Shown one piece after another: positions 13,118-35,838 of a DNA stretch of 35,948 bases; position 1 is the stretch's first letter, and every line of letters begins with the position of its first letter. Location: IMG/VR virus record IMGVR_UViG_3300045988_029071, positions 1 through 35,948 of that record, one strand, 5' to 3'. The notes beneath the pieces were generated by a model. The model searched no databases, was not told the origin of the DNA, and worked only from the letters and a program-made list of their open reading frames with translations. The position numbers and the translations under genes were made by a program. The stretch is from a virus.

Positions 13118-13972
13118 TTATTTCTTGATTTCTGCAAGCACGACTTTAGAATCATCTGAAACGGCCACTGTGTAGAACTCGTCGATTGAGATTTCAGTAG
13201 AACGTTTCAATGATTTACGGTCTACTTCGACGTTTGGATCACGTTTGAGATAGACTGTCAATGCTGCAGTGTCTTTTTCAGTTTCGTCATCATGAGTAAG
13301 TTTGATGATTGGGCAAGTGTAGAATGCGCTAGTTGTATCGAGAGTAACCTTTTTAGTAGGAACAATGCGAGTGTTAGCGATTGTACCAATTTCGCCAGTC
13401 ATTACAACTTGGTTTGGATATTTATCCGCTGAAATGAAGTTAGGATCTTTACGCAAAGTTGTGACTTGTTTTGGATTGACAAACATTACTTTTTCAGTGT
13501 TAACTTCTTCTTCAAACAAATCAATAGCATCTACGATTACATCATAGCTGATTGCTTTTGTTTTAGAGTCATGCTTGCGAGTGTTTGTTTTCAAAAGAGC
13601 GTCCATTGCATCGTTATCAATTTTAGATGCGATAGAAAGTGCGAGTTGGTTTTCTGCGTTTCCTACTGGGTCACCATAACCAGAGAGAACAGCTTCGTCT
13701 GTCAATTCAACAGCTTTCATAGCTTTCTTGATTGTAGCAGTCTTAGTAGATGTACCAAGGACTACAACACCAGCTTCTACACCTTCGTTTACATCTTCAG
13801 CATCACCGATGTATGTGTAAGATGGTACTGTGATTGTGTTTCCTGGCACGCCTTCAAGCGTACGGTCGATTGCTGCAAATGGAATCACTTGCAATTTCTT
13901 TGGTAGCTTAGCTGCAATCATATCTCCCATTACTTCAGGATTTACTAGATTTGCAATTTTAGTTTGTGTCAT
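13118..13972 (-). CDS. Major capsid protein
   Basis: 284 aa following the scaffold gene. The N-terminus MTQTKIANLVNPEVMGDMIAAKLPKKL is typical of this capsid family in streptococcal siphoviruses. Confidence 0.85.
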   Translation of the reverse strand: MTQTKIANLVNPEVMGDMIAAKLPKKLQVIPFAAIDRTLEGVPGNTITVPSYTYIGDAEDVNEGVEAGVVVLGTSTKTATIKKAMKAVELTDEAVLSGYGDPVGNAENQLALSIASKIDNDAMDALLKTNTRKHDSKTKAISYDVIVDAIDLFEEEVNTEKVMFVNPKQVTTLRKDPNFISADKYPNQVVMTGEIGTIANTRIVPTKKVTLDTTSAFYTCPIIKLTHDDETEKDTAALTVYLKRDPNVEVDRKSLKRSTEISIDEFYTVAVSDDSKVVLAEIKK

Positions 13973-13994: not shown

Positions 13995-14570
13995 TTAATT
14001 CAAAAACGAGTTATACAATTCAGGATTTGACTGTTTCAATGCAGCCTTTTCTGAATGACTCATTTGGAAAAATTGAGCTCTTGAAAGCCCTGTTGATTGT
14101 TGCGGCGCAGTCTTAATAGGTGCGCTACCTTTCATGCGGTCAGATACCCCTTTTTGGACTGCATCCTCCCACGTTTTCTGAATGCTTGCGACCGATTCAG
14201 TCACAGCTTCAGCGTTTGACAAATCAACCACGTTTACTAATTCAACTGGTAAGCCACGTTCACTTAACATTGCCTTAGCTTCTGCGGTCAATTCCTTACG
14301 AGCAATCGCTTGTTCACGATTAGCCAATTCTTGCTCACGCTGATCCAACTGATATTTCTGTTTCTCATCAGCGTTCATCTTGGCAAGTTTTTTAGCTTCG
14401 TTTTCCTTGGCTTCTTGCTCTGATTTCCACTTAGCAAACTTCTTGTCAATGATAGCATCGACTTCTGCATCTGTGTACTTTTTCTCGTCTTGCGGTTGGG
14501 TTTCGATAGTAGGTTCTGCAGGCACCCCTTGAGCTTCAACCGTTTCGACTGTTTGTGTTTCTTCGTTCAT
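13995..14570 (-). CDS. Scaffolding protein (DUF4355-like)
   Basis: 191 aa, acidic with coiled-coil sequence (KKYTDAEVDAIIDKKFAKWKSEQEAKENEAKK), upstream of the capsid gene. Confidence 0.8.
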   Translation of the reverse strand: MNEETQTVETVEAQGVPAEPTIETQPQDEKKYTDAEVDAIIDKKFAKWKSEQEAKENEAKKLAKMNADEKQKYQLDQREQELANREQAIARKELTAEAKAMLSERGLPVELVNVVDLSNAEAVTESVASIQKTWEDAVQKGVSDRMKGSAPIKTAPQQSTGLSRAQFFQMSHSEKAALKQSNPELYNSFLN

Positions 14571-14731: not shown

Positions 14732-15031
14732 CTAAATAGTATCTAAAATATTCAGATACTCTAATTCTTCGTATGTTTCTGCAAAAATATCAGGCTTGCA
14801 CGGATAAAGTTCGCCTTGTACACCTCTAATAATGAAATCGCCTGTTTTTGCAACCATGACACCTTCAAGTGTCTTGATTTCACACCACGCTGGATTCTTA
14901 GACCATTTACCACCGTCGTGAATAATAATTTCATTTCTTGTCACTGCGTCCCAAAACCAGTCTTCCTCAATCAAGCAACGTTCATTGAGTTGAACCGCCT
15001 CAATGACTACTGGTTTCTTTCTGTATTTCAT
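14732..15031 (-). CDS. 99-aa small phage protein (PGDYG-like from memory; function unknown)
   Basis: MKYRKKPVVIEAVQ...AKTGDFIIRGVQGELYPCKPDIFAETYE resembles a widespread small phage protein family. It has an ATGA overlap with the upstream peptide ORF. Confidence 0.65.
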   Translation of the reverse strand: MKYRKKPVVIEAVQLNERCLIEEDWFWDAVTRNEIIIHDGGKWSKNPAWCEIKTLEGVMVAKTGDFIIRGVQGELYPCKPDIFAETYEELEYLNILDTI

Positions 15032-15150
15032 TTTTTCAATCCTTTCTTTACACCTTCAATTATCCCGCTGATCACAGCCAGAATAATAAAGATTAACAAC
15101 AAAAATACCAACCACCCAAAGGCGATTGATACCCATTCCCAAATAAACAT
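15028..15150 (-). CDS. 40-aa single-pass membrane peptide (MFIWEWVSIAFGWLVFLLLIFIILAVISGIIEGVKKGLKK), not in the ORF track
   Basis: Hand translation. A strong AAAGGAGG Shine-Dalgarno sequence lies 5 nt upstream of the ATG at 15150. The TGA stop overlaps the ATG of the 99-aa gene. Confidence 0.55.
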   Translation of the reverse strand: MFIWEWVSIAFGWLVFLLLIFIILAVISGIIEGVKKGLKK

Positions 15151-15172
15151 CAGCTCCTCCTTTCTGAGCACG

Positions 15173-15201
15173 AAAAAAGCACTTAGATTGCTCTAGGTGC
15201 T
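15173..15201 (-). terminator. Rho-independent terminator after the MuF-associated small ORF
   Basis: The - strand reads AGCACCTAGA-GCAA-TCTAAGTGCT (10 positions with one C-A mismatch) followed by TTTTTCG. The stem starts at the stop codon of the 71-aa ORF. Confidence 0.5.
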
Positions 15202-15416
15202 TAATAAATTCTGTCGTCGTAATCAATCGGTTTTTCAAACGCTTCATTTTTCTTAATGCACGAATCCACGACTGAATTATATTTCGAAATAGCTTCCTCG
15301 TCTACCTCGAAAGGGATTATCAAATACACAGGAAAATCTTCACCAAAATGACTATTGTATCTCTCACTGATTTCTTTGAATTGATTATAAATTTTTTCAT
15401 TCTTCCAAAAAAACAT
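15201..15416 (-). CDS. 71-aa protein immediately downstream of the MuF fusion (candidate cognate immunity/partner)
   Basis: The track ORF is trimmed to the ATG at 15416, which has a perfect AAGGAGG Shine-Dalgarno sequence 5 nt upstream. It begins 14 nt after the MuF stop. Confidence 0.6.
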   Translation of the reverse strand: MFFWKNEKIYNQFKEISERYNSHFGEDFPVYLIIPFEVDEEAISKYNSVVDSCIKKNEAFEKPIDYDDRIY

Positions 15417-15429
15417 CCTGACCTCCTTA

Positions 15430-17466
15430 TCAAACAATCGGCTTTTTGTTTTCTAATTTCAATTTTGAAATATCTTCAAATATCTTGTTGTATATTTTAA
15501 CAGAATTTGGGAAAACTTTGTCATAAAATGTTTTTATTTCAGGGGTCATTTGTGCTTGAGTATATTCCGCAATAAATTCCATCCCTCGATGTGCTTTATT
15601 TTTCCAATACGAATCCGAATGATTGAAAGGCTGTGAACCATATTCCGCACTTCGAAAAGAACTCATCATATCCGAAGCTAATGCACCAACCTCCGCATTT
15701 GCTTCGGGACGAATTTCTGGGTTTAATTTCTTTGCTAGTTCAAGTAATTCTGATTTGAAATCTCTTACTTTAGCTTGACGAAGATTAAAGAAGTCTCGTT
15801 TCTCATCTATAGACACTCCTCTTTTGAGCTTCATATCCCCGAAAATATAATTGTCCATATCTTTTTTTATGGTATTGTACAAGTCATACTGACTGCTAAA
15901 CGCTTTAGCTCCTAATTCCGGGGCGCCGAAGTAAGTTGCGACATTATCGATGCCATGAGTAAATTCATGAAGAACGATTGAATGTGCTTTCTGATTAAAT
16001 TTCTTGTTGTAAATAAAATCGCCTTTTGCCAAATTAATTTGTGTGCCAGACACATGAGAAGACATTTCTTTTACTTTTGCAAATGATAATTTATCTACTG
16101 AACCGTAGAGAGATTGCACAAAATCATCATTCGGGAAAACACGCAATTCTCTTAAAAGACCTTGTGCATTTTCTTCTCCGAAAACATCTACAAAATTCGT
16201 CGTCCGGAGTTTTTCTTCTATACGTGAGACTAAATCACGACGAGTTTTAGGAATTTTGCTTTCTCGTTCTTCTAAAAGTTTTCTCTCTGCTTCTGCCTGC
16301 AATCCTTTTTGTTTCACTTTTAGCTTCTCTTGCTCTTCGACCCACTCATAATATTTCATAAGATCATCAAAGTCAAGATTGTTGATTTCTTCAGTTGTTA
16401 GTTTAGAGAAATCAATTTTAATGATTTTCTCGTCTTGGTCAACGTACTTAGAGTACCAGTCTTTATAACTCATATCAGCAGGTACGTACTCGACTTTGCC
16501 TGTTTCAGGATTTCTAGCCCTGCGCTCTAACTTGCTGTAGTCGATATCCTCATCGTGTGCGATGGTTATAGACCGACACCAAGGATGTAGTGGTGGGTAA
16601 TTCACACCAGGAACGGCCTTGTCCGTATCGTAAATCTTGTTGTCGTGCTCCAGGCAAATGTGAGACGTGCGCTTGTCTAAGACTGCTACGAATTTATACT
16701 TTGTAATCTCGGCATCTTCATAGCTGAGCAGTTCCATCTGGTTATGAAAAAAGGCTGACTCAGTACGAACCAAGCGCCTAGCTTTATTTTGACCAACCTC
16801 AAAACGTTCAGCGATTGCTTGAGATGTATCTCTTACGCTTCGACCAGTCATAAGACTTACTAAAAGCTCGTCTTTCACACTTGAAGCGAGCGCCCCAGTA
16901 TTTGACCATATTCTGTCCGAATAGGCCTCTCCCGTCCACTTTAGACCTTGTAGACGTTTGATTTCTGTTTCGGGTAAGTCGGAGAAGCTATAAGCAAGTC
17001 CTGTCTGCTGCTGCAAATCAAAGGTAGCCTTATAATAGCTATCCTTCATCAAGCCGCTGTAAAAGGTATCTGAGCCTTTCTTCTCAGAATGATAGATAGA
17101 CTCACGCATCGAATCCAAGTCAGCGCTTAACCGTTCAAGTCGCTTCATGCGATAAGCGTAAGCCGGACTGTCCAAATCAGCCAGCAAACGTTGTATGTTT
17201 GGGTCGTCCGGTCTTGCTTCAAGCACCTTACGAAGTTCGTTTAGGTCTTTCTGGTCCTTCATGTTCTTCAAGACATGACGAGCATCACGCTCACTCAAAC
17301 CATAATCACGTTGAAACTTGTCAAAGATTTTGTTGATTTGCTTGTCTAAATAAGCTTTGGACTCTTCGTAGACCTTATCAAACTTGTCTGCTTGCTTCTC
17401 AGCCTTGTCCATCTGCTCATAGATAAGATTAGCTTTCCTCTTGGTCCAATAGTCCTGGTTCTTCAT
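15430..17466 (-). CDS. MuF/SPP1 gp7-type head morphogenesis protein fused to a C-terminal HExxH (zincin-like) domain
   Basis: Residues about 150-305 carry the MuF signature (VLDKRTSHICLEHDNKIY...PPLHPWCRS). Residues about 400-678 are an extra domain with LHEFTHG (H500-H504, nt 15955-15969). Confidence 0.8.
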   Translation of the reverse strand: MKNQDYWTKRKANLIYEQMDKAEKQADKFDKVYEESKAYLDKQINKIFDKFQRDYGLSERDARHVLKNMKDQKDLNELRKVLEARPDDPNIQRLLADLDSPAYAYRMKRLERLSADLDSMRESIYHSEKKGSDTFYSGLMKDSYYKATFDLQQQTGLAYSFSDLPETEIKRLQGLKWTGEAYSDRIWSNTGALASSVKDELLVSLMTGRSVRDTSQAIAERFEVGQNKARRLVRTESAFFHNQMELLSYEDAEITKYKFVAVLDKRTSHICLEHDNKIYDTDKAVPGVNYPPLHPWCRSITIAHDEDIDYSKLERRARNPETGKVEYVPADMSYKDWYSKYVDQDEKIIKIDFSKLTTEEINNLDFDDLMKYYEWVEEQEKLKVKQKGLQAEAERKLLEERESKIPKTRRDLVSRIEEKLRTTNFVDVFGEENAQGLLRELRVFPNDDFVQSLYGSVDKLSFAKVKEMSSHVSGTQINLAKGDFIYNKKFNQKAHSIVLHEFTHGIDNVATYFGAPELGAKAFSSQYDLYNTIKKDMDNYIFGDMKLKRGVSIDEKRDFFNLRQAKVRDFKSELLELAKKLNPEIRPEANAEVGALASDMMSSFRSAEYGSQPFNHSDSYWKNKAHRGMEFIAEYTQAQMTPEIKTFYDKVFPNSVKIYNKIFEDISKLKLENKKPIV

Positions 17467-18841
17467 CTGTCACCTCTTCGTCTGGCTTCGTGTTCACCTG
17501 ATTAAAGAATGGCACACGTTCCATGTTCTTTTCTTTCTCTTCTTCGAGGTCTTCCAATTCAGCATCAGGGTCTTCAACGAATGGCAAGAGAGAAATAAGC
17601 TGACGAAGTGAAACCTTACCTTCAAGATTATTGATAACCTGTGACAATTCAAGTAAGTTCTTAGGTAATCCACGGCTAAACTGTGGCACAATTGAGTGTG
17701 CCTCAAGAGCAATCTGTTGCATGCCCAGATAATGAGCAAAGATAGCAATACGTTGACGGATACCACGTTTGTAATTTGCTTCCTTGGTCTTAGTAATCAT
17801 CTCAAGACCTAGCAGCTTGAATTCCATAGCTACACCCGAGCTATTCCCTGCAAAGTTTTCATCTGTCAGATTTGGCACATGGCTGAATGTGTAGATGTCT
17901 TCTTTCAAAGCCTTACGCAAGATTTCAGTAGCGTTCTCGTCCAGAGCATTCTTCAAGAAATCAGCTTTGGCATCTGTTGGCAACTCTAAAAGTCCTTCTT
18001 CAGCAAGGATGCTCATTGCTTCTCTGGCATCTTCCGGGTTATCAGCTAATTGCGCACCGTACAATACGAGAATAGACTCGACTGCTTGTTCTTTGTCGTT
18101 GACACGATTACCCATCAACGAATTGTAAGCATCGATTAAGCTAATCTGTTGTTCATAATCACCAATCGCAAAGTGATTGTTTCGGTATTCAATGATTGGA
18201 ACCTGACCAAGATTGTGAGGTTCTACTTGTTCATTCTGTGTTATTCCAGCACTTGAATCACGCAACACAATGTGATAGTGCAGATTTTGAGTAAAGACTT
18301 CAGCTTGATACTTGGTAGCATTCTTTATATCATCTTTGATTTCGTAGTAATACACTGCAAAGAGAACCTTGCGTTCAATACTGTCATCATAAACCAGGAA
18401 TACATTCTCAGGATCTACGCTAGTAGAATCAAGTTCAGTCAATCCTTCTTTGGCATAGATGTACTCGTAAGCACGCCCGTAGATGGACATGTTCAATGCG
18501 TTCTGTGTGTCTACCTGGTCAATCTCAGCGCCATCAAACGCCACAAGTAAGGATTCGATATCACCTTCGGCAGTGTTGTTATACTTAACAGCATTGCCCA
18601 TAAAGTAACCTGCGGCAGTGTCCGAAATATCCTTAGCGTGATTAGCTACTGTTTTAAAGTTTGGAGCGTTCTTGTTTCGTCGCTCATGTTTTAAAATAGC
18701 ATGCTCACCCATGTAGTAGCTTTTAAGCTTCTTCAAACGCTGGCGTTCTTGTGCATGCTTTTGAATCAGCTTGTAGATCAATTCCTTGTTCAAAGCTGTT
18801 TCGTCATATCCCTCTCTCGGATAAGTTAAAATCTGATACAT
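17429..18841 (-). CDS. Portal protein (SPP1 gp6-like)
   Basis: 470 aa located between TerL and MuF, with an N-terminal pattern typical of SPP1-family portals. Confidence 0.85.
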   Translation of the reverse strand: MYQILTYPREGYDETALNKELIYKLIQKHAQERQRLKKLKSYYMGEHAILKHERRNKNAPNFKTVANHAKDISDTAAGYFMGNAVKYNNTAEGDIESLLVAFDGAEIDQVDTQNALNMSIYGRAYEYIYAKEGLTELDSTSVDPENVFLVYDDSIERKVLFAVYYYEIKDDIKNATKYQAEVFTQNLHYHIVLRDSSAGITQNEQVEPHNLGQVPIIEYRNNHFAIGDYEQQISLIDAYNSLMGNRVNDKEQAVESILVLYGAQLADNPEDAREAMSILAEEGLLELPTDAKADFLKNALDENATEILRKALKEDIYTFSHVPNLTDENFAGNSSGVAMEFKLLGLEMITKTKEANYKRGIRQRIAIFAHYLGMQQIALEAHSIVPQFSRGLPKNLLELSQVINNLEGKVSLRQLISLLPFVEDPDAELEDLEEEKEKNMERVPFFNQVNTKPDEEVTDEEPGLLDQEES

Positions 18842-18852
18842 TTAATTCCTTT

Positions 18853-20076
18853 CTATAAGCCATAAAAAGATTTTCTCTTAACGGTTGCTCTTGGTTGTGC
18901 ATGTTGCGAGTAAATCGCATAACGCACCGCATCCAGCACGTCATCATTCTCTTTCACTGGCTCGCCTGTCTTTTCGTTCCAGATGTATTGATAGACTTCA
19001 TCCTTGAACTTGCTAACATTGTTTGATACAACAAAAAAGCGCCCTGCTTTCATAAGCTTAGCGACTTCTTCAATACCAGACAACACTGCTTTATTAGCGT
19101 TGAATGTTTTTAGTTGTTCTCTTTGAAATCTAGCAATGTGTTCAGGTCGTGCGCTATCTGCCCAAAAAGTAATATTCCCATATCGTTCCTTGATATTCTT
19201 AGCAAGGTCTACCCAAAAATCTATCTCTTTGTATTGATGAGCGTGTTCCTCTAACAGATAAGCCGAACCGTCAGACGTTTCTCCGATAACAACGATTGAG
19301 CCAAAGTGTTCATATCCCCAGTCGACACCAGCGTATACTTTTGCGATGTCTTCCGGCGCATTACCCACAAACATACTCTCGCTAAAATCACGATAGACTA
19401 CTCCTTCACCAGTTACCCACAGTCCGAGGATGTCTCTGTCGTAAAATACACCAGCTGGTGTAGCGCTTTTGATATTCTCGCGGTATCTATCAGACATGAA
19501 TGTATTATCATCTAGCTTGAAATGAAAGTCTATAATCATATCATCCCCAGAGTTGATATAATCTCGTCTGAGCCAGTGAGTCGGGATATCCGGGTTACTG
19601 TCCCAAACAATCCGTGCTCCCTCTCCAGAACAACGTGAGATAATTTCTTTAAACACTTGTTCGTTGGCTAATGATGCCTCGTTTATGTAGGCTCCAAAAG
19701 CAGTAAAACCACGGGCACGTTTTAGCCCTGAAATCGAACCGGTATATACTTGGATAATTTTGACTCCACAAAGAGTAAACGCACCATGTTTATCATATTT
19801 TGGTTCAATACCGAACATGTTATATAATTCCTGGATGATATTGTTTTGTATCGACGTTGAAGAGGTTCCGGCTAAAATATACATTGGCTCATCAATGTTT
19901 AATCTATCAGCCGTCTCTCTCACTCGTGCAATCTCATTTATGAAAACCATATTGTTTAGAACGGTTTTACCTGAACGCTTTGCACCATGCAGACCACAAA
20001 TAAAAAAATCATCATTTAAAACCCGCTTAAGGACTTGCTCTTGTTTAGGGGTGAATTTACTTGTCATTAAAAGCAC
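18853..20076 (-). CDS. terL: Terminase large subunit (PBSX/Terminase_3-like)
   Basis: 407 aa with Walker A motif GLHGAKRSGKT. An alternative start is the fourth codon (20067). Confidence 0.9.
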   Translation of the reverse strand: MLLMTSKFTPKQEQVLKRVLNDDFFICGLHGAKRSGKTVLNNMVFINEIARVRETADRLNIDEPMYILAGTSSTSIQNNIIQELYNMFGIEPKYDKHGAFTLCGVKIIQVYTGSISGLKRARGFTAFGAYINEASLANEQVFKEIISRCSGEGARIVWDSNPDIPTHWLRRDYINSGDDMIIDFHFKLDDNTFMSDRYRENIKSATPAGVFYDRDILGLWVTGEGVVYRDFSESMFVGNAPEDIAKVYAGVDWGYEHFGSIVVIGETSDGSAYLLEEHAHQYKEIDFWVDLAKNIKERYGNITFWADSARPEHIARFQREQLKTFNANKAVLSGIEEVAKLMKAGRFFVVSNNVSKFKDEVYQYIWNEKTGEPVKENDDVLDAVRYAIYSQHAQPRATVKRKSFYGL

Positions 20077-32646: not shown

Positions 32647-33015
32647 ATGACTATTTTAGATAGAATACGTTCGTTAGCTAACGAAAGAAAAGTTACTCTT
32701 GCCGAATTGGAAAGAAGTTTAGACTTCAGCAATGGCAGTCTCAGGAAATGGGATACTTCAACTCCTAGTGGCGATAAAATTGAAAAAGTTGCTGATTACT
32801 TTAACGTATCAGTCGATTATTTATTGGGTAGGACGAAAAATCCTTACTCACCGAATGACAATTTGATGAACACTCAAGAACTTGAAGCTCTAATAACGTT
32901 TCGAAAAGAAACTGAGGATATGTCAGATGATGAAAAAGAGCGCTTTAATATAGCTCTCATTAACATGATGAAAAATGCTCGTGATCTTGTCAAAGATGAT
33001 TCTTTCTGGAAGTAG
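32647..33015 (+). CDS. CI-like XRE-family repressor without a peptidase S24 domain
   Basis: 122 aa with the N-terminal HTH LANERKVTLAELERSLDFSNGSLRKWDTS...VDYLLGR and a GGAGG Shine-Dalgarno sequence. The short C-terminal part has no Ser/Lys autocleavage motif. Confidence 0.8.
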   Translation: MTILDRIRSLANERKVTLAELERSLDFSNGSLRKWDTSTPSGDKIEKVADYFNVSVDYLLGRTKNPYSPNDNLMNTQELEALITFRKETEDMSDDEKERFNIALINMMKNARDLVKDDSFWK

Positions 33016-33023
33016 GTGATTAT

Positions 33024-33785
33024 TTGAAACGATTTACAAGACCATCAAAAGAAACTTACTTACAATATCACAGAAATGCAAATCAACTACTTATGGATAT
33101 ATCTGACCATTTCAATATCCATATTTCTCAAATAACTTTCGACCTAATTATTGAATTCTTTGAAACTAAGTTTAATATTTTATTTGTCTATTTTGAAGCG
33201 GATTTAGTGTACAATTGGTTTCCAAATAGAAAACAAGAACTTAAGTATAATTTAACTTCAAATAATTCTCTCTTGTTGGTTGATTTCAGCTTTTGTAATG
33301 TTTGTTCTGGAATGACGATTCCTGATTTTCAAAAGAATCGTTTTGTTGTTTACATCAACCAAGATGTGATTAAGGGAAGGGTTATGTTTACAATCCTTCA
33401 CGAATTAGTCCATATATACTATCATCTTATTAATTCTGTTTATGATAAAGTTCTAGTTTCTAAGACTTCGTCAAACTATAGCGATTCCTATCCAACTGAG
33501 ATTGTGCCATTAGAGGACGAAGCAAATACCATTGCATCAATTTTGTTTCTCAATGATTATAAGTTACTTGAGTACATAAAATCCGGCTTGACATTCAAAC
33601 AACTTGTTGAACGTAGTCAAATGTCAAAGCCTGCATTGCATAATCGTTTGATGAACTTTCTAATGTATAATTGTAATTGTCAAGAATATTATGCTCTCAA
33701 TATCGTTCAAGGATACAAAAAAGACGAGGGCTGGACCATTATGGCTTTGCAACAATTTCAAAGAGAATTGCAAGAAATTGCTTAA
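33024..33785 (+). CDS. ImmA/IrrE-family zinc metalloprotease
   Basis: 253 aa with a TTG start. It has the HExxH motif (FTILHELVHIYYH) and lies immediately downstream of the XRE repressor, the canonical ImmR/ImmA arrangement. Confidence 0.7.
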   Translation: MKRFTRPSKETYLQYHRNANQLLMDISDHFNIHISQITFDLIIEFFETKFNILFVYFEADLVYNWFPNRKQELKYNLTSNNSLLLVDFSFCNVCSGMTIPDFQKNRFVVYINQDVIKGRVMFTILHELVHIYYHLINSVYDKVLVSKTSSNYSDSYPTEIVPLEDEANTIASILFLNDYKLLEYIKSGLTFKQLVERSQMSKPALHNRLMNFLMYNCNCQEYYALNIVQGYKKDEGWTIMALQQFQRELQEIA

Positions 33786-34695: not shown

Positions 34696-35838
34696 ATGTG
34701 GATGGAAGAATTACCAAACGGAAAGTATAAATTTTTTGAACGATATAAAGACCCGTACACTGAAAAATTGAAGAGGGTATCTGTAACGCTTAGTTCTGGT
34801 ACATCACGAGCTAAGAAGGAAGCTCAGAAGCTATTAGACGAACGTATAGAAGAAACTTTACAAAATTTACAATCAACAGATGTGACTTATCAACACGTTT
34901 TAGATGAATGGTGGACATTTTACCAGAAAGAAATCAAAGGTAGTTCTATCAGCTCTCTTACAAGTAGCGTGAATGATTTTAAGGAAGCGTTCGATACAGA
35001 AATTAAAGTTAAGAATATAGACACTAAATATATCCAGAGATTCTTAAATGATCTAGATATTTCTCGTTCAAAACTAGAGCGCTATAAAATGATTTTAAAT
35101 CTATCACTTGATTATGCAGTTAATCTTGAATATATCAAAGACAATCCTGCAAGACGAGCGAAACTTCCAAAACAAATAAAAACAATCGAAGAATTAGAAA
35201 AAACAGAAAAGAAATTTTTAGAAGAGGAAGAATTAAAAAGATTACTAGAGGAATTGTATAGAACAAAGAATACATACAGACTAGGATTGCTTGCTGAATT
35301 CATGGCATACAATGGTTGTCGAATTGGTGAAGCCATTGCCATTAAACAAGAAAATATTGATTTCGATAACAAGACAGTAAAAATCCATGGAACTCTAGAT
35401 AAAACAGTAGGGTATTCAAAAGGATTTAAAACAACTACTAAAACTGCTGCAAGCTTCAGAACTGTTTCTTTATCAAAGAGAGAGATTGAAATTTTAAAAG
35501 AGTTTATCTCAATAAATGAACTTTCTAAAAATACTCGAAAAACATTCAATGATCTTGGATTTATCTTTGTTACCAAAAACGGTATACCAATCCAAAATAA
35601 TTCTTTCAACTTAGCAATCCAGAAAGCAAATAAACGTTTAAAAAATCCAATCGACAAACATCTTACCTCGCATATTTTTAGACATACTCTTGTTAGTAGA
35701 CTAGCAGAAAACAATGTACCTTTAAAAGCAATTATGGCAAGAGTTGGTCACTCCGACTCTCGAACAACTAATAAAATATATACACACGTTACTAAAAAGA
35801 TGGATGATAATATCTTGGACTTGCTTGATTCTTTATAG
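34696..35838 (+). CDS. int: Tyrosine integrase (phage integrase family)
   Basis: 380 aa. The C-terminal catalytic region has RIGEAIAI, HIFRHTLVSRL, GHSDSRTTNKIYTHV (R...HxxR...H...Y). It lies adjacent to the terminal repeat. Confidence 0.92.
   Translation: MWMEELPNGKYKFFERYKDPYTEKLKRVSVTLSSGTSRAKKEAQKLLDERIEETLQNLQSTDVTYQHVLDEWWTFYQKEIKGSSISSLTSSVNDFKEAFDTEIKVKNIDTKYIQRFLNDLDISRSKLERYKMILNLSLDYAVNLEYIKDNPARRAKLPKQIKTIEELEKTEKKFLEEEELKRLLEELYRTKNTYRLGLLAEFMAYNGCRIGEAIAIKQENIDFDNKTVKIHGTLDKTVGYSKGFKTTTKTAASFRTVSLSKREIEILKEFISINELSKNTRKTFNDLGFIFVTKNGIPIQNNSFNLAIQKANKRLKNPIDKHLTSHIFRHTLVSRLAENNVPLKAIMARVGHSDSRTTNKIYTHVTKKMDDNILDLLDSL

Follow-up and report, generated by a model that had tools for sequence, protein, structure and literature searches.

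A prophage MuF head protein with a predicted lethal-factor-like zincin domain that is exchanged together with a small partner gene

The DNA examined here is a viral stretch of 35,948 nucleotides (nt) (IMG/VR record IMGVR_UViG_3300045988_029071, positions 1 to 35,948; hereafter, the window), which represents a nearly complete temperate prophage from a mitis-group Streptococcus. Its head module encodes a 678-amino-acid (aa) MuF minor head protein fused to a C-terminal zincin-like domain, and this fusion gene is followed closely by an open reading frame (ORF) of 71 aa. The 71-aa ORF is the cognate partner of the zincin domain, because the two are exchanged together and lie side by side in almost every locus that carries the domain. 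We regard it as nearly certain that the domain and the small gene form one cassette with a cognate partner, and as very likely that the domain is a zincin with a competent active site. The whole chain, in which a lethal-factor-like protease effector would be carried by the virion and matched by an inhibitor or immunity protein, is the reading that we hold to be probable.

Exchange of the C-terminal cassette in the MuF slot

The cassette and its carrier comprise the following features.

15430..17466, minus strand: complete gene for the MuF-zincin fusion (678 aa and a TGA stop), between the portal and scaffold genes (ORF list)
16432..17466, minus strand: MuF / SPP1-gp7 minor-head-protein core, residues 1 to ~345 (PF04233, TIGR01641, phrog_2841)
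16425..16454, minus strand: left breakpoint of the cassette, MuF residues ~338-348, just past ...DWYSKYV (end of blastn similarity to non-zincin relatives)
16240..16431, minus strand: charged linker, residues ~346-409 (IDFSKLTTEEINNLDFDDL...EEQEKLKVKQK...), outside the modelled region
15433..16239, minus strand: C-terminal zincin-like domain, residues 410-678 (alignment A4, profile match to lethal factor, phrog_115 and AlphaFold2 [AF2] model, all described below)
15422..15428, minus strand: AAGGAGG Shine-Dalgarno sequence of the partner gene, within the 13-nt spacer (read from the sequence)
15201..15416, minus strand: partner ORF of 71 aa, the zincin's predicted inhibitor or immunity protein (substitution rates, adjacency, co-occurrence)
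15173..15202, minus strand: terminator-like hairpin (15177-15202) and U tract (down to 15173), where the cassette has its right border (RNA folding, similarity breakpoint)

A preliminary description of the window had placed a MuF signature in residues 150-305 of the fusion protein. The signature is present: Pfam Phage_Mu_F (PF04233) matched residues 196-300 (nt 16567-16881; E 2.8e-15, 57.5 bits against a cut-off of 29.6) and TIGR01641 (phageSPP1_gp7) matched residues 197-303 (E 2.5e-22, 79.3 bits against a cut-off of 39.65). Its extent had been drawn too narrowly, however, since residues 1-347 aligned end to end with phrog_2841 (E 2e-158), and the conserved core runs from residue 1 to ~345. 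A search of the full fusion protein against the PDB sequences returned only Rad50 coiled-coil matches, which we judged to be due to chance.

We compared 80 viral contigs (L079-L158) whose MuF core was ≥90% identical to that of the window. The zincin domain was found in 11 of the 80 contigs and the partner ORF in precisely those 11, whereas the remaining 69 had neither (11/11 versus 0/69). The 69 non-zincin contigs carried at least 11 other C-terminal types, nearly all with a downstream ORF family of their own, which brings the total on the ≥90% identical core to at least 12. Two of the alternative types were ADP-ribosyltransferase ADPrib_exo_Tox domains (PF03496, E ~1e-14), each followed by an ORF of ~100-110 aa; another was a WLM-like HExxH domain with the motif HELTHKKH, and yet another a weak Tox-MPTase4-like domain. 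All of the C-terminal variants diverge from the 'YV' of the core onward. Judged from these orthologues, the C-terminal region is a separate and exchangeable module, in line with what had been proposed from the window alone. The MuF slot of mitis-group prophages is a hot spot for the exchange of effector and partner cassettes.

Two observations on the contents of this slot are added here. The commonest alternative C-terminus (17 loci) had a JAB/RadC-like HxHPxG...S..D motif, and the MuF protein of contig L148 was just 350 aa long, without any extension.

The borders of the exchange could be mapped within tens of bases. Blastn similarity to the non-zincin relatives ended at 16425-16454 and restarted at 15202-15210, indicating that the linker, the zincin domain and the 71-aa ORF are exchanged as one unit of ~1.2 kb, bordered by the end of the MuF core and by a conserved hairpin. 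The linker is itself modular: its first part also precedes a different C-terminal domain in P0008, and in P0004 the window-type zincin sits behind another carrier, a PF06152 protein. The impression that the C-terminal part is AT-rich was confirmed by computation, with a GC content of 0.33-0.37 over 15001-16500 compared with 0.44-0.46 over 16501-17500 (the MuF core) and ~0.39-0.43 in the flanking morphogenesis genes.

The hairpin starts within the TAA stop codon of the 71-aa ORF. A terminator had been predicted at this place, and both the hairpin and its U tract were seen; the consensus terminator scan, however, gave no call for this hairpin, whose centroid structure (-10.9 kcal/mol) had a z score of only -1.84. 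We call it terminator-like, not a demonstrated terminator.

The partner gene begins closely after the fusion gene, as had been described. A 13-nt spacer (TAAGGAGGTCAGG) separates the TGA stop of the fusion (15430-15432) from the ATG of the 71-aa ORF (15414-15416). Relatives read ...PIVW-TAA at the end of the fusion and the window reads ...PIV-TGA-TAA; this single-base change, TGA for TGG (Trp), makes the window protein one residue shorter and has no other consequence. The 71-aa ORF is a real gene, because it is under purifying selection: comparisons with the 16 close relatives not identical to the window gave ratios of nonsynonymous to synonymous substitution rates of 0.03-0.19.

Adjacency of the two genes extended far beyond the close relatives. 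A scan of viral contigs with the zincin family gave 72 loci, the zincin domains of which were from 98% down to 22% identical to that of the window. One of the 72 ends just past the MuF gene and is hence uninformative. A partner-family ORF (59-79 aa) lay directly 3' of the zincin gene in 70 of the 71 informative loci, also in phages whose domains have no more than 22-31% identity, at a gap of -11 to +12 nt that was often 0-2 nt in distant relatives. The partner consensus was M-F-x-x-E-D-G-A...K-Y-E-x-H-F...F-P-L-Y-E-Y...P-x-D/G-Y-x-D/E-R-x-Y-stop. Thus, the suggestion that the small protein is the partner of the zincin held up, both by co-exchange and by adjacency.

A reverse search that started from the small protein retrieved 46 homologues, none with a Pfam domain, and those named in their source were called 'hypothetical'. 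In every homologue locus that was looked up, the small gene came directly after a zincin-bearing minor capsid protein of 632-692 aa (hidden Markov model E ~1e-39 to 1e-94); PF06152 carriers were among these loci, as were contigs that have tail-sheath genes. Two carrier families, PF04233 and PF06152, bear the zincin and partner pair. The pair was found in oral and nasopharyngeal streptococcal prophages and in enterococcal phages, and partner matches were obtained in Leuconostoc and Pediococcus. In contigs L160-L162, which encode a tail sheath (myovirus type), the pair was also present, with a partner of 59 aa that overlapped the MuF stop by 8 nt.

The 71-aa protein matched no Pfam or NCBIfam family. 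Its AF2 model (predicted local distance difference test score, pLDDT, 86) consisted of two helices with a C-terminal tail that is extended and conserved, and a Foldseek search of this model against the PDB gave no significant match.

The zincin-like domain

The residues that identify the domain are listed below, and those called invariant are so in alignment A4.

15946..15969, minus strand: HEFTHGID with H500, E501, H504 and D507, predicted zinc ligands and catalytic base, invariant
15607..15675, minus strand: further invariant residues S598, D599, H616 and Y620 (SD...H..YW block), A4 columns S189, D190, H207 and Y211
15565..15579, minus strand: EFIAE, residues 630-634, with E630 as the predicted third zinc ligand; E and A invariant

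With residues 410-678 as the query and a limit of E ≤ 1e-3, an exhaustive HMMER search yielded 30 cluster representatives, which were nearly all 500-700 aa long with the match at their C-terminal end. All full-length representatives had HExxHxxD followed 120-160 residues later by E-F-[FIL]-A-[EH]; in the window, EFIAE follows at ~125 residues. Across two protein searches, HExxHxxD and E-F-x-A-[EH] were present in 29 of 29 motif-bearing relatives or representatives, one of them with the variant WETFAE. Both motifs were likewise present in 70 of the 72 viral loci, the other two being one frameshifted gene and one gene with the variant ELFAH. The LHEFTHG that had been read in the window, with H500 to H504 at nt 15955-15969, stands as described, and its conservation across relatives and loci leads us to dismiss a chance HExxH. 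The domain also matched positions 341-616 of phrog_115 (E 4.5e-35).

We aligned 20 domains (alignment A4), mostly 22-28% identical to the window domain. Just 12 columns were invariant, and these included H500, E501, H504, D507, S598, D599, H616, Y620, E630 and A633 (window numbering). Y620 may correspond to the catalytic Tyr of lethal factor. When the A4 profile was run against all PDB sequences, the best match was anthrax lethal factor (2l0r_A, E 7.5e-4), whose HEFGHAVD and EAEFFAE both lined up, in order, with the two motifs of the domain; the next matches were M34 Pro-Pro endopeptidases, including Zmp1. The sub-threshold Pfam matches were all HExxH zincin families, namely M90 (MtfA; 17.1-18.8 bits against a cut-off of 26.2), M91 (NleD) and DUF4344, the last two being matched by family members at E ~1e-3 to 3e-4. 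A word-indexed homologue search with A4 retrieved only seven close relatives, all recovered before. One database record labels a close homologue as 'M36 fungalysin'; we did not adopt this label, as no M36 match appeared in any search.

The domain thus resembles lethal factor and M34 (Zmp1 and the Pro-Pro endopeptidases), M90 MtfA and M91 NleD in having HE(F/L)xH(A/G)(I/V)D and then (E)xEF(F/I)AE, two motifs that in lethal factor provide the zinc-binding His-His-Glu. NleD, like lethal factor, is a delivered effector. The domain differs from lethal factor in its large helical insertions and N-terminal helical bundle, as seen in the AF2 model, and in the distance between the two motifs, which is ~45 residues in lethal factor and ~125 in the window domain. 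The carrier differs as well, being a phage head protein here, whereas lethal factor is a secreted toxin. Iyer et al. (2017, PMC5512222) unified virion-associated zincin domains with lethal factor in profile-profile searches. The domain carries a conserved gluzincin-type active-site signature, most like that of lethal factor and M34, in a family that no curated model covers.

The AF2 model of residues 410-678, which was built on A4, was confident (pLDDT 86.6, predicted template-modelling score 0.88) and mostly helical over its 269 residues. HExxH lay in helix 87-105 (domain numbering), right after short strands at 62-64 and 67-69, and E630 lay on a later helix, 215-229.

Genomic setting and neighbouring genes

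The window encodes the following genes around the cassette, together with replication genes.

34696-35838: integrase
32647-33785: ImmA-type peptidase with a helix-turn-helix repressor
18853-20076, minus strand: large terminase (TerL)
17429-18841, minus strand: SPP1-type portal (PF05133, E 3.8e-100)
15028-15150, minus strand: 40-aa ORF with its own AAGGAGG and a single predicted membrane helix (MFIWEWVSIAFGWLVFLLLIF...; phrog_5469, E 6e-21)
14732-15031, minus strand: 99-aa ORF (MKYRKKPVVIEAVQ...; phrog_419, E 1e-33), no Pfam or NCBIfam family
13995-14570, minus strand: scaffold gene (DUF4355)
13118-13972, minus strand: major capsid protein
1043-1930: Amidase_5 lysin with choline-binding repeats

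The late genes are thus arranged, on the minus strand, in the order TerL, portal, MuF-zincin, small ORFs, scaffold and major capsid protein. The closest deposited phage was Javan266 of S. infantis, with 86% nucleotide identity across the cassette region, and near-identical cassettes were found in prophages of S. infantis, S. oralis and S. mitis genomes. A genome scan with a single protein as the query recovered four close streptococcal prophages only.

Many pneumococcal and mitis phages had the 40-aa ORF, conserved to ~90% at the nucleotide level, irrespective of the MuF cassette. Among close relatives, similarity was often lost between ~15097 and 14733, that is, between the MuF cassette and the scaffold gene, and this stretch looks like a second moron slot. 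A promoter-like site at 15276-15304 on the minus strand (TAGACG, a 17-nt spacer and TATAAT; 10 of 12 matches) lies within the 71-aa ORF and faces the downstream small ORFs; promoter-like sites in this region were no more numerous than in shuffled sequence.

Proposed role of the pair and relation to known systems

Jamet et al. (2017, PMC5576092) described an architecture in which a MuF polymorphic toxin is followed by a small downstream ORF. The window locus has the N-terminal MuF domain, the position in the head module of a temperate phage, the variable effector C-terminus and the type-specific small downstream ORF (<150 aa), and it shows all of the testable defining features of that class. 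The apk2-iapK-aph1 locus of an S. pneumoniae prophage consists of a MuF toxin followed by two validated immunity genes (PMC12226406). As in other MuF toxins and in Apk2, the N-terminal MuF carrier is located by the portal, the C-terminus varies between near-identical phages, and a small ORF lies directly downstream; unlike Apk2, which is a (p)ppApp synthetase, the effector here is a predicted zinc peptidase. In a close relative, Streptococcus phage IPP64 (L002, 3463-5667), a 527-aa MuF protein is followed by a 69-aa ORF and then by a 137-aa HD-domain protein (HD hydrolase). This is the order published for Apk2-IapK-Aph1, so that an Apk2-like order fills the same slot. The IPP64-type C-terminus, to which Pfam gave no name, is also among the types on the ≥90% identical core, and by analogy it may be equivalent to that of Apk2.

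The preliminary description had spoken of a polyvalent-protein and MuF-toxin architecture. The latter part fits, with a MuF toxin and a downstream small ORF, but 'polyvalent protein' was an overstatement, since the domains detected in the fusion were the MuF core, the linker and one zincin domain only. Polyvalent zincin-like MPTase domains have been proposed to be effectors or processors of their carrier protein (PMC5512222). The window protein differs from polyvalent proteins in having a single effector domain on MuF and a dedicated partner gene, and corresponds to what Iyer et al. call a 'simple MuF fusion'.

We propose the following mechanism. The fusion and partner proteins would be produced together late in infection. 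The small protein would bind the zincin domain and keep it inactive in the producing cell, possibly by means of its conserved extended C-terminal tail (...P-x-D/G-Y-x-D/E-R-x-Y). The MuF core would dock the fusion at the portal, and a few copies would be taken into the head, as with SPP1 gp7. When the next cell is infected, the fusion would leave the capsid with the DNA, as for SPP1 gp7 and 80alpha gp44, and at this early stage the protease might cleave at least one host protein; its targets could be a defence or regulatory protein or the proteins of a competitor cell. The packaging and ejection steps are assumed from homology. For efficient infection SPP1 needs its minor head protein gp7 (Vinga et al. 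2006, as cited in PMC5512222), and in 80alpha the MuF protein gp44 serves as an ejection protein (PMC12323379). The fusion shares with both a homologous MuF core and the same position after the portal. It is more than twice as long as gp7, and we know of no enzymatic C-terminal extension in SPP1 gp7 or 80alpha gp44.

A more specific version is that the partner belongs to an undescribed family of inhibitors of lethal-factor-like zincins, with the tail plugging the cleft, and that the protease, once injected free of its inhibitor, cleaves a specific host defence or lysis-lysogeny regulator. We put this forward tentatively, as a minority possibility.

Several observations weigh against the proposed reading. 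One concerns the partner: two intact zincins occur without an adjacent partner gene, indicating that the partner is not universally required. The first, which is the one exception among the 71 informative loci, is a 674-aa MuF-zincin in L072 (2725-4749) with HEIGH and EFIAH intact; it has no partner ORF, and the scaffold gene lies 100 nt further on. The second is a stand-alone 256-aa zincin without a MuF carrier in L168 (1912-2682), a 3.2-kb contig in which no partner ORF was detected; it is located between a DUF4417 gene and the gene for the small terminase subunit. Moreover, the promoter scan found no promoter-like site ahead of the partner gene inside the late operon. Without a promoter of its own the partner would be expressed solely alongside the late genes, and such a late-operon partner would not obviously protect a lysogen from an incoming toxin.

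The remaining observations of this kind concern the domain. A zincin-type domain had been predicted, and the conserved motifs and the lethal factor profile match agree with that prediction; the likeness of structure that was to accompany it was not recovered. The best Foldseek match of the AF2 model in the PDB had an E of 1.8, with no solved zincin and no peptidase among the matches, and in the viral structure library Foldseek found other 'minor capsid proteins' only. No curated peptidase family (ATLF, MPTase-PolyVal or any Tox-MPTase) matched above the Pfam cut-off; Pfam ATLF was missing from the hit lists of the window domain and of the family members, and no polyvalent-MPTase Pfam model was among the matches with E up to 1. 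The window clade also departs from the consensus at two conserved blocks, with MMSSFR for MMESTG and NHS for GHG. We count the Foldseek negative as weak, because the zincin core is a small part of the 269-residue, mostly helical model. Nevertheless, since a confident model recovered no solved zincin, the zincin call rests on the motifs and the profile matches.

The points on the partner bear on a different explanation, namely that the small protein is a dedicated chaperone, adaptor or co-factor that folds or stabilises the zincin domain, helps to package it or is delivered with it. Co-swapping and adjacency show that the two proteins work together but not in which direction, and this explanation would also accommodate the expression of the partner with the late genes only, the absence of an upstream promoter-like site, the two partnerless zincins and a partner fold that matches no known immunity or inhibitor protein. 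On the other hand, chaperones and adaptors of effectors are usually encoded upstream of the effector. In polymorphic-toxin systems, moreover, a small gene that directly follows the toxin gene typically encodes immunity, as has been shown experimentally for Apk2 (PMC12226406). We consider a chaperone-like role improbable, though it deserves to be kept in mind.

The zincin might instead act in cis or within the particle, processing the MuF fusion or head proteins such as the scaffold at assembly or ejection. Autoproteolytic processing was proposed by Iyer et al. (PMC5512222) as a main role of zincin-like domains in virion polyvalent proteins, and in the window no gene for a separate prohead protease could be seen from the portal to the capsid gene. 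However, there are phages with homologous portal and scaffold regions whose MuF core is ≥90% identical and which have ADP-ribosyltransferases or other modules in place of the zincin. Because these relatives do without it with the same head genes, the domain cannot be needed for head assembly, and a morphogenetic protease was rejected as the principal interpretation. A purely self-processing role, moreover, leaves the dedicated and co-swapped partner unexplained, and we think a role within the particle distinctly unlikely. [quoted passage not shown]

Compared with the published record, the zincin family and the partner family, both unannotated, are new here, as are the precise borders of the cassette. 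The zincin family and the ~59-80-aa partner family match no curated model. The survey of Zhang et al. (PMC3482391) lists a lethal-factor-like metallopeptidase toxin for PVC and type II secretion only, not for MuF. According to Jamet et al. (PMC5576092), peptidase types make up 20% of the MuF toxin class, a share that may or may not include the present family. In the literature that we found, the (p)ppApp-synthetase type was the only MuF toxin characterised experimentally.

As effectors carried by phages, MuF toxins form a large class, of which few members have been tested. The locus described here defines a clean and widespread pair, consisting of a predicted lethal-factor-like zincin and a conserved small partner, and the pair makes it testable whether phages inject an active protease, what that protease would target and how a ~71-aa protein could silence it. 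The exchange of cassettes in the MuF slot matters for competition and lysogeny among the relatives of the pneumococcus. If the more specific version of the proposed reading is true, the injected zincin would be a phage-delivered counterpart of anthrax lethal factor that acts on bacteria.

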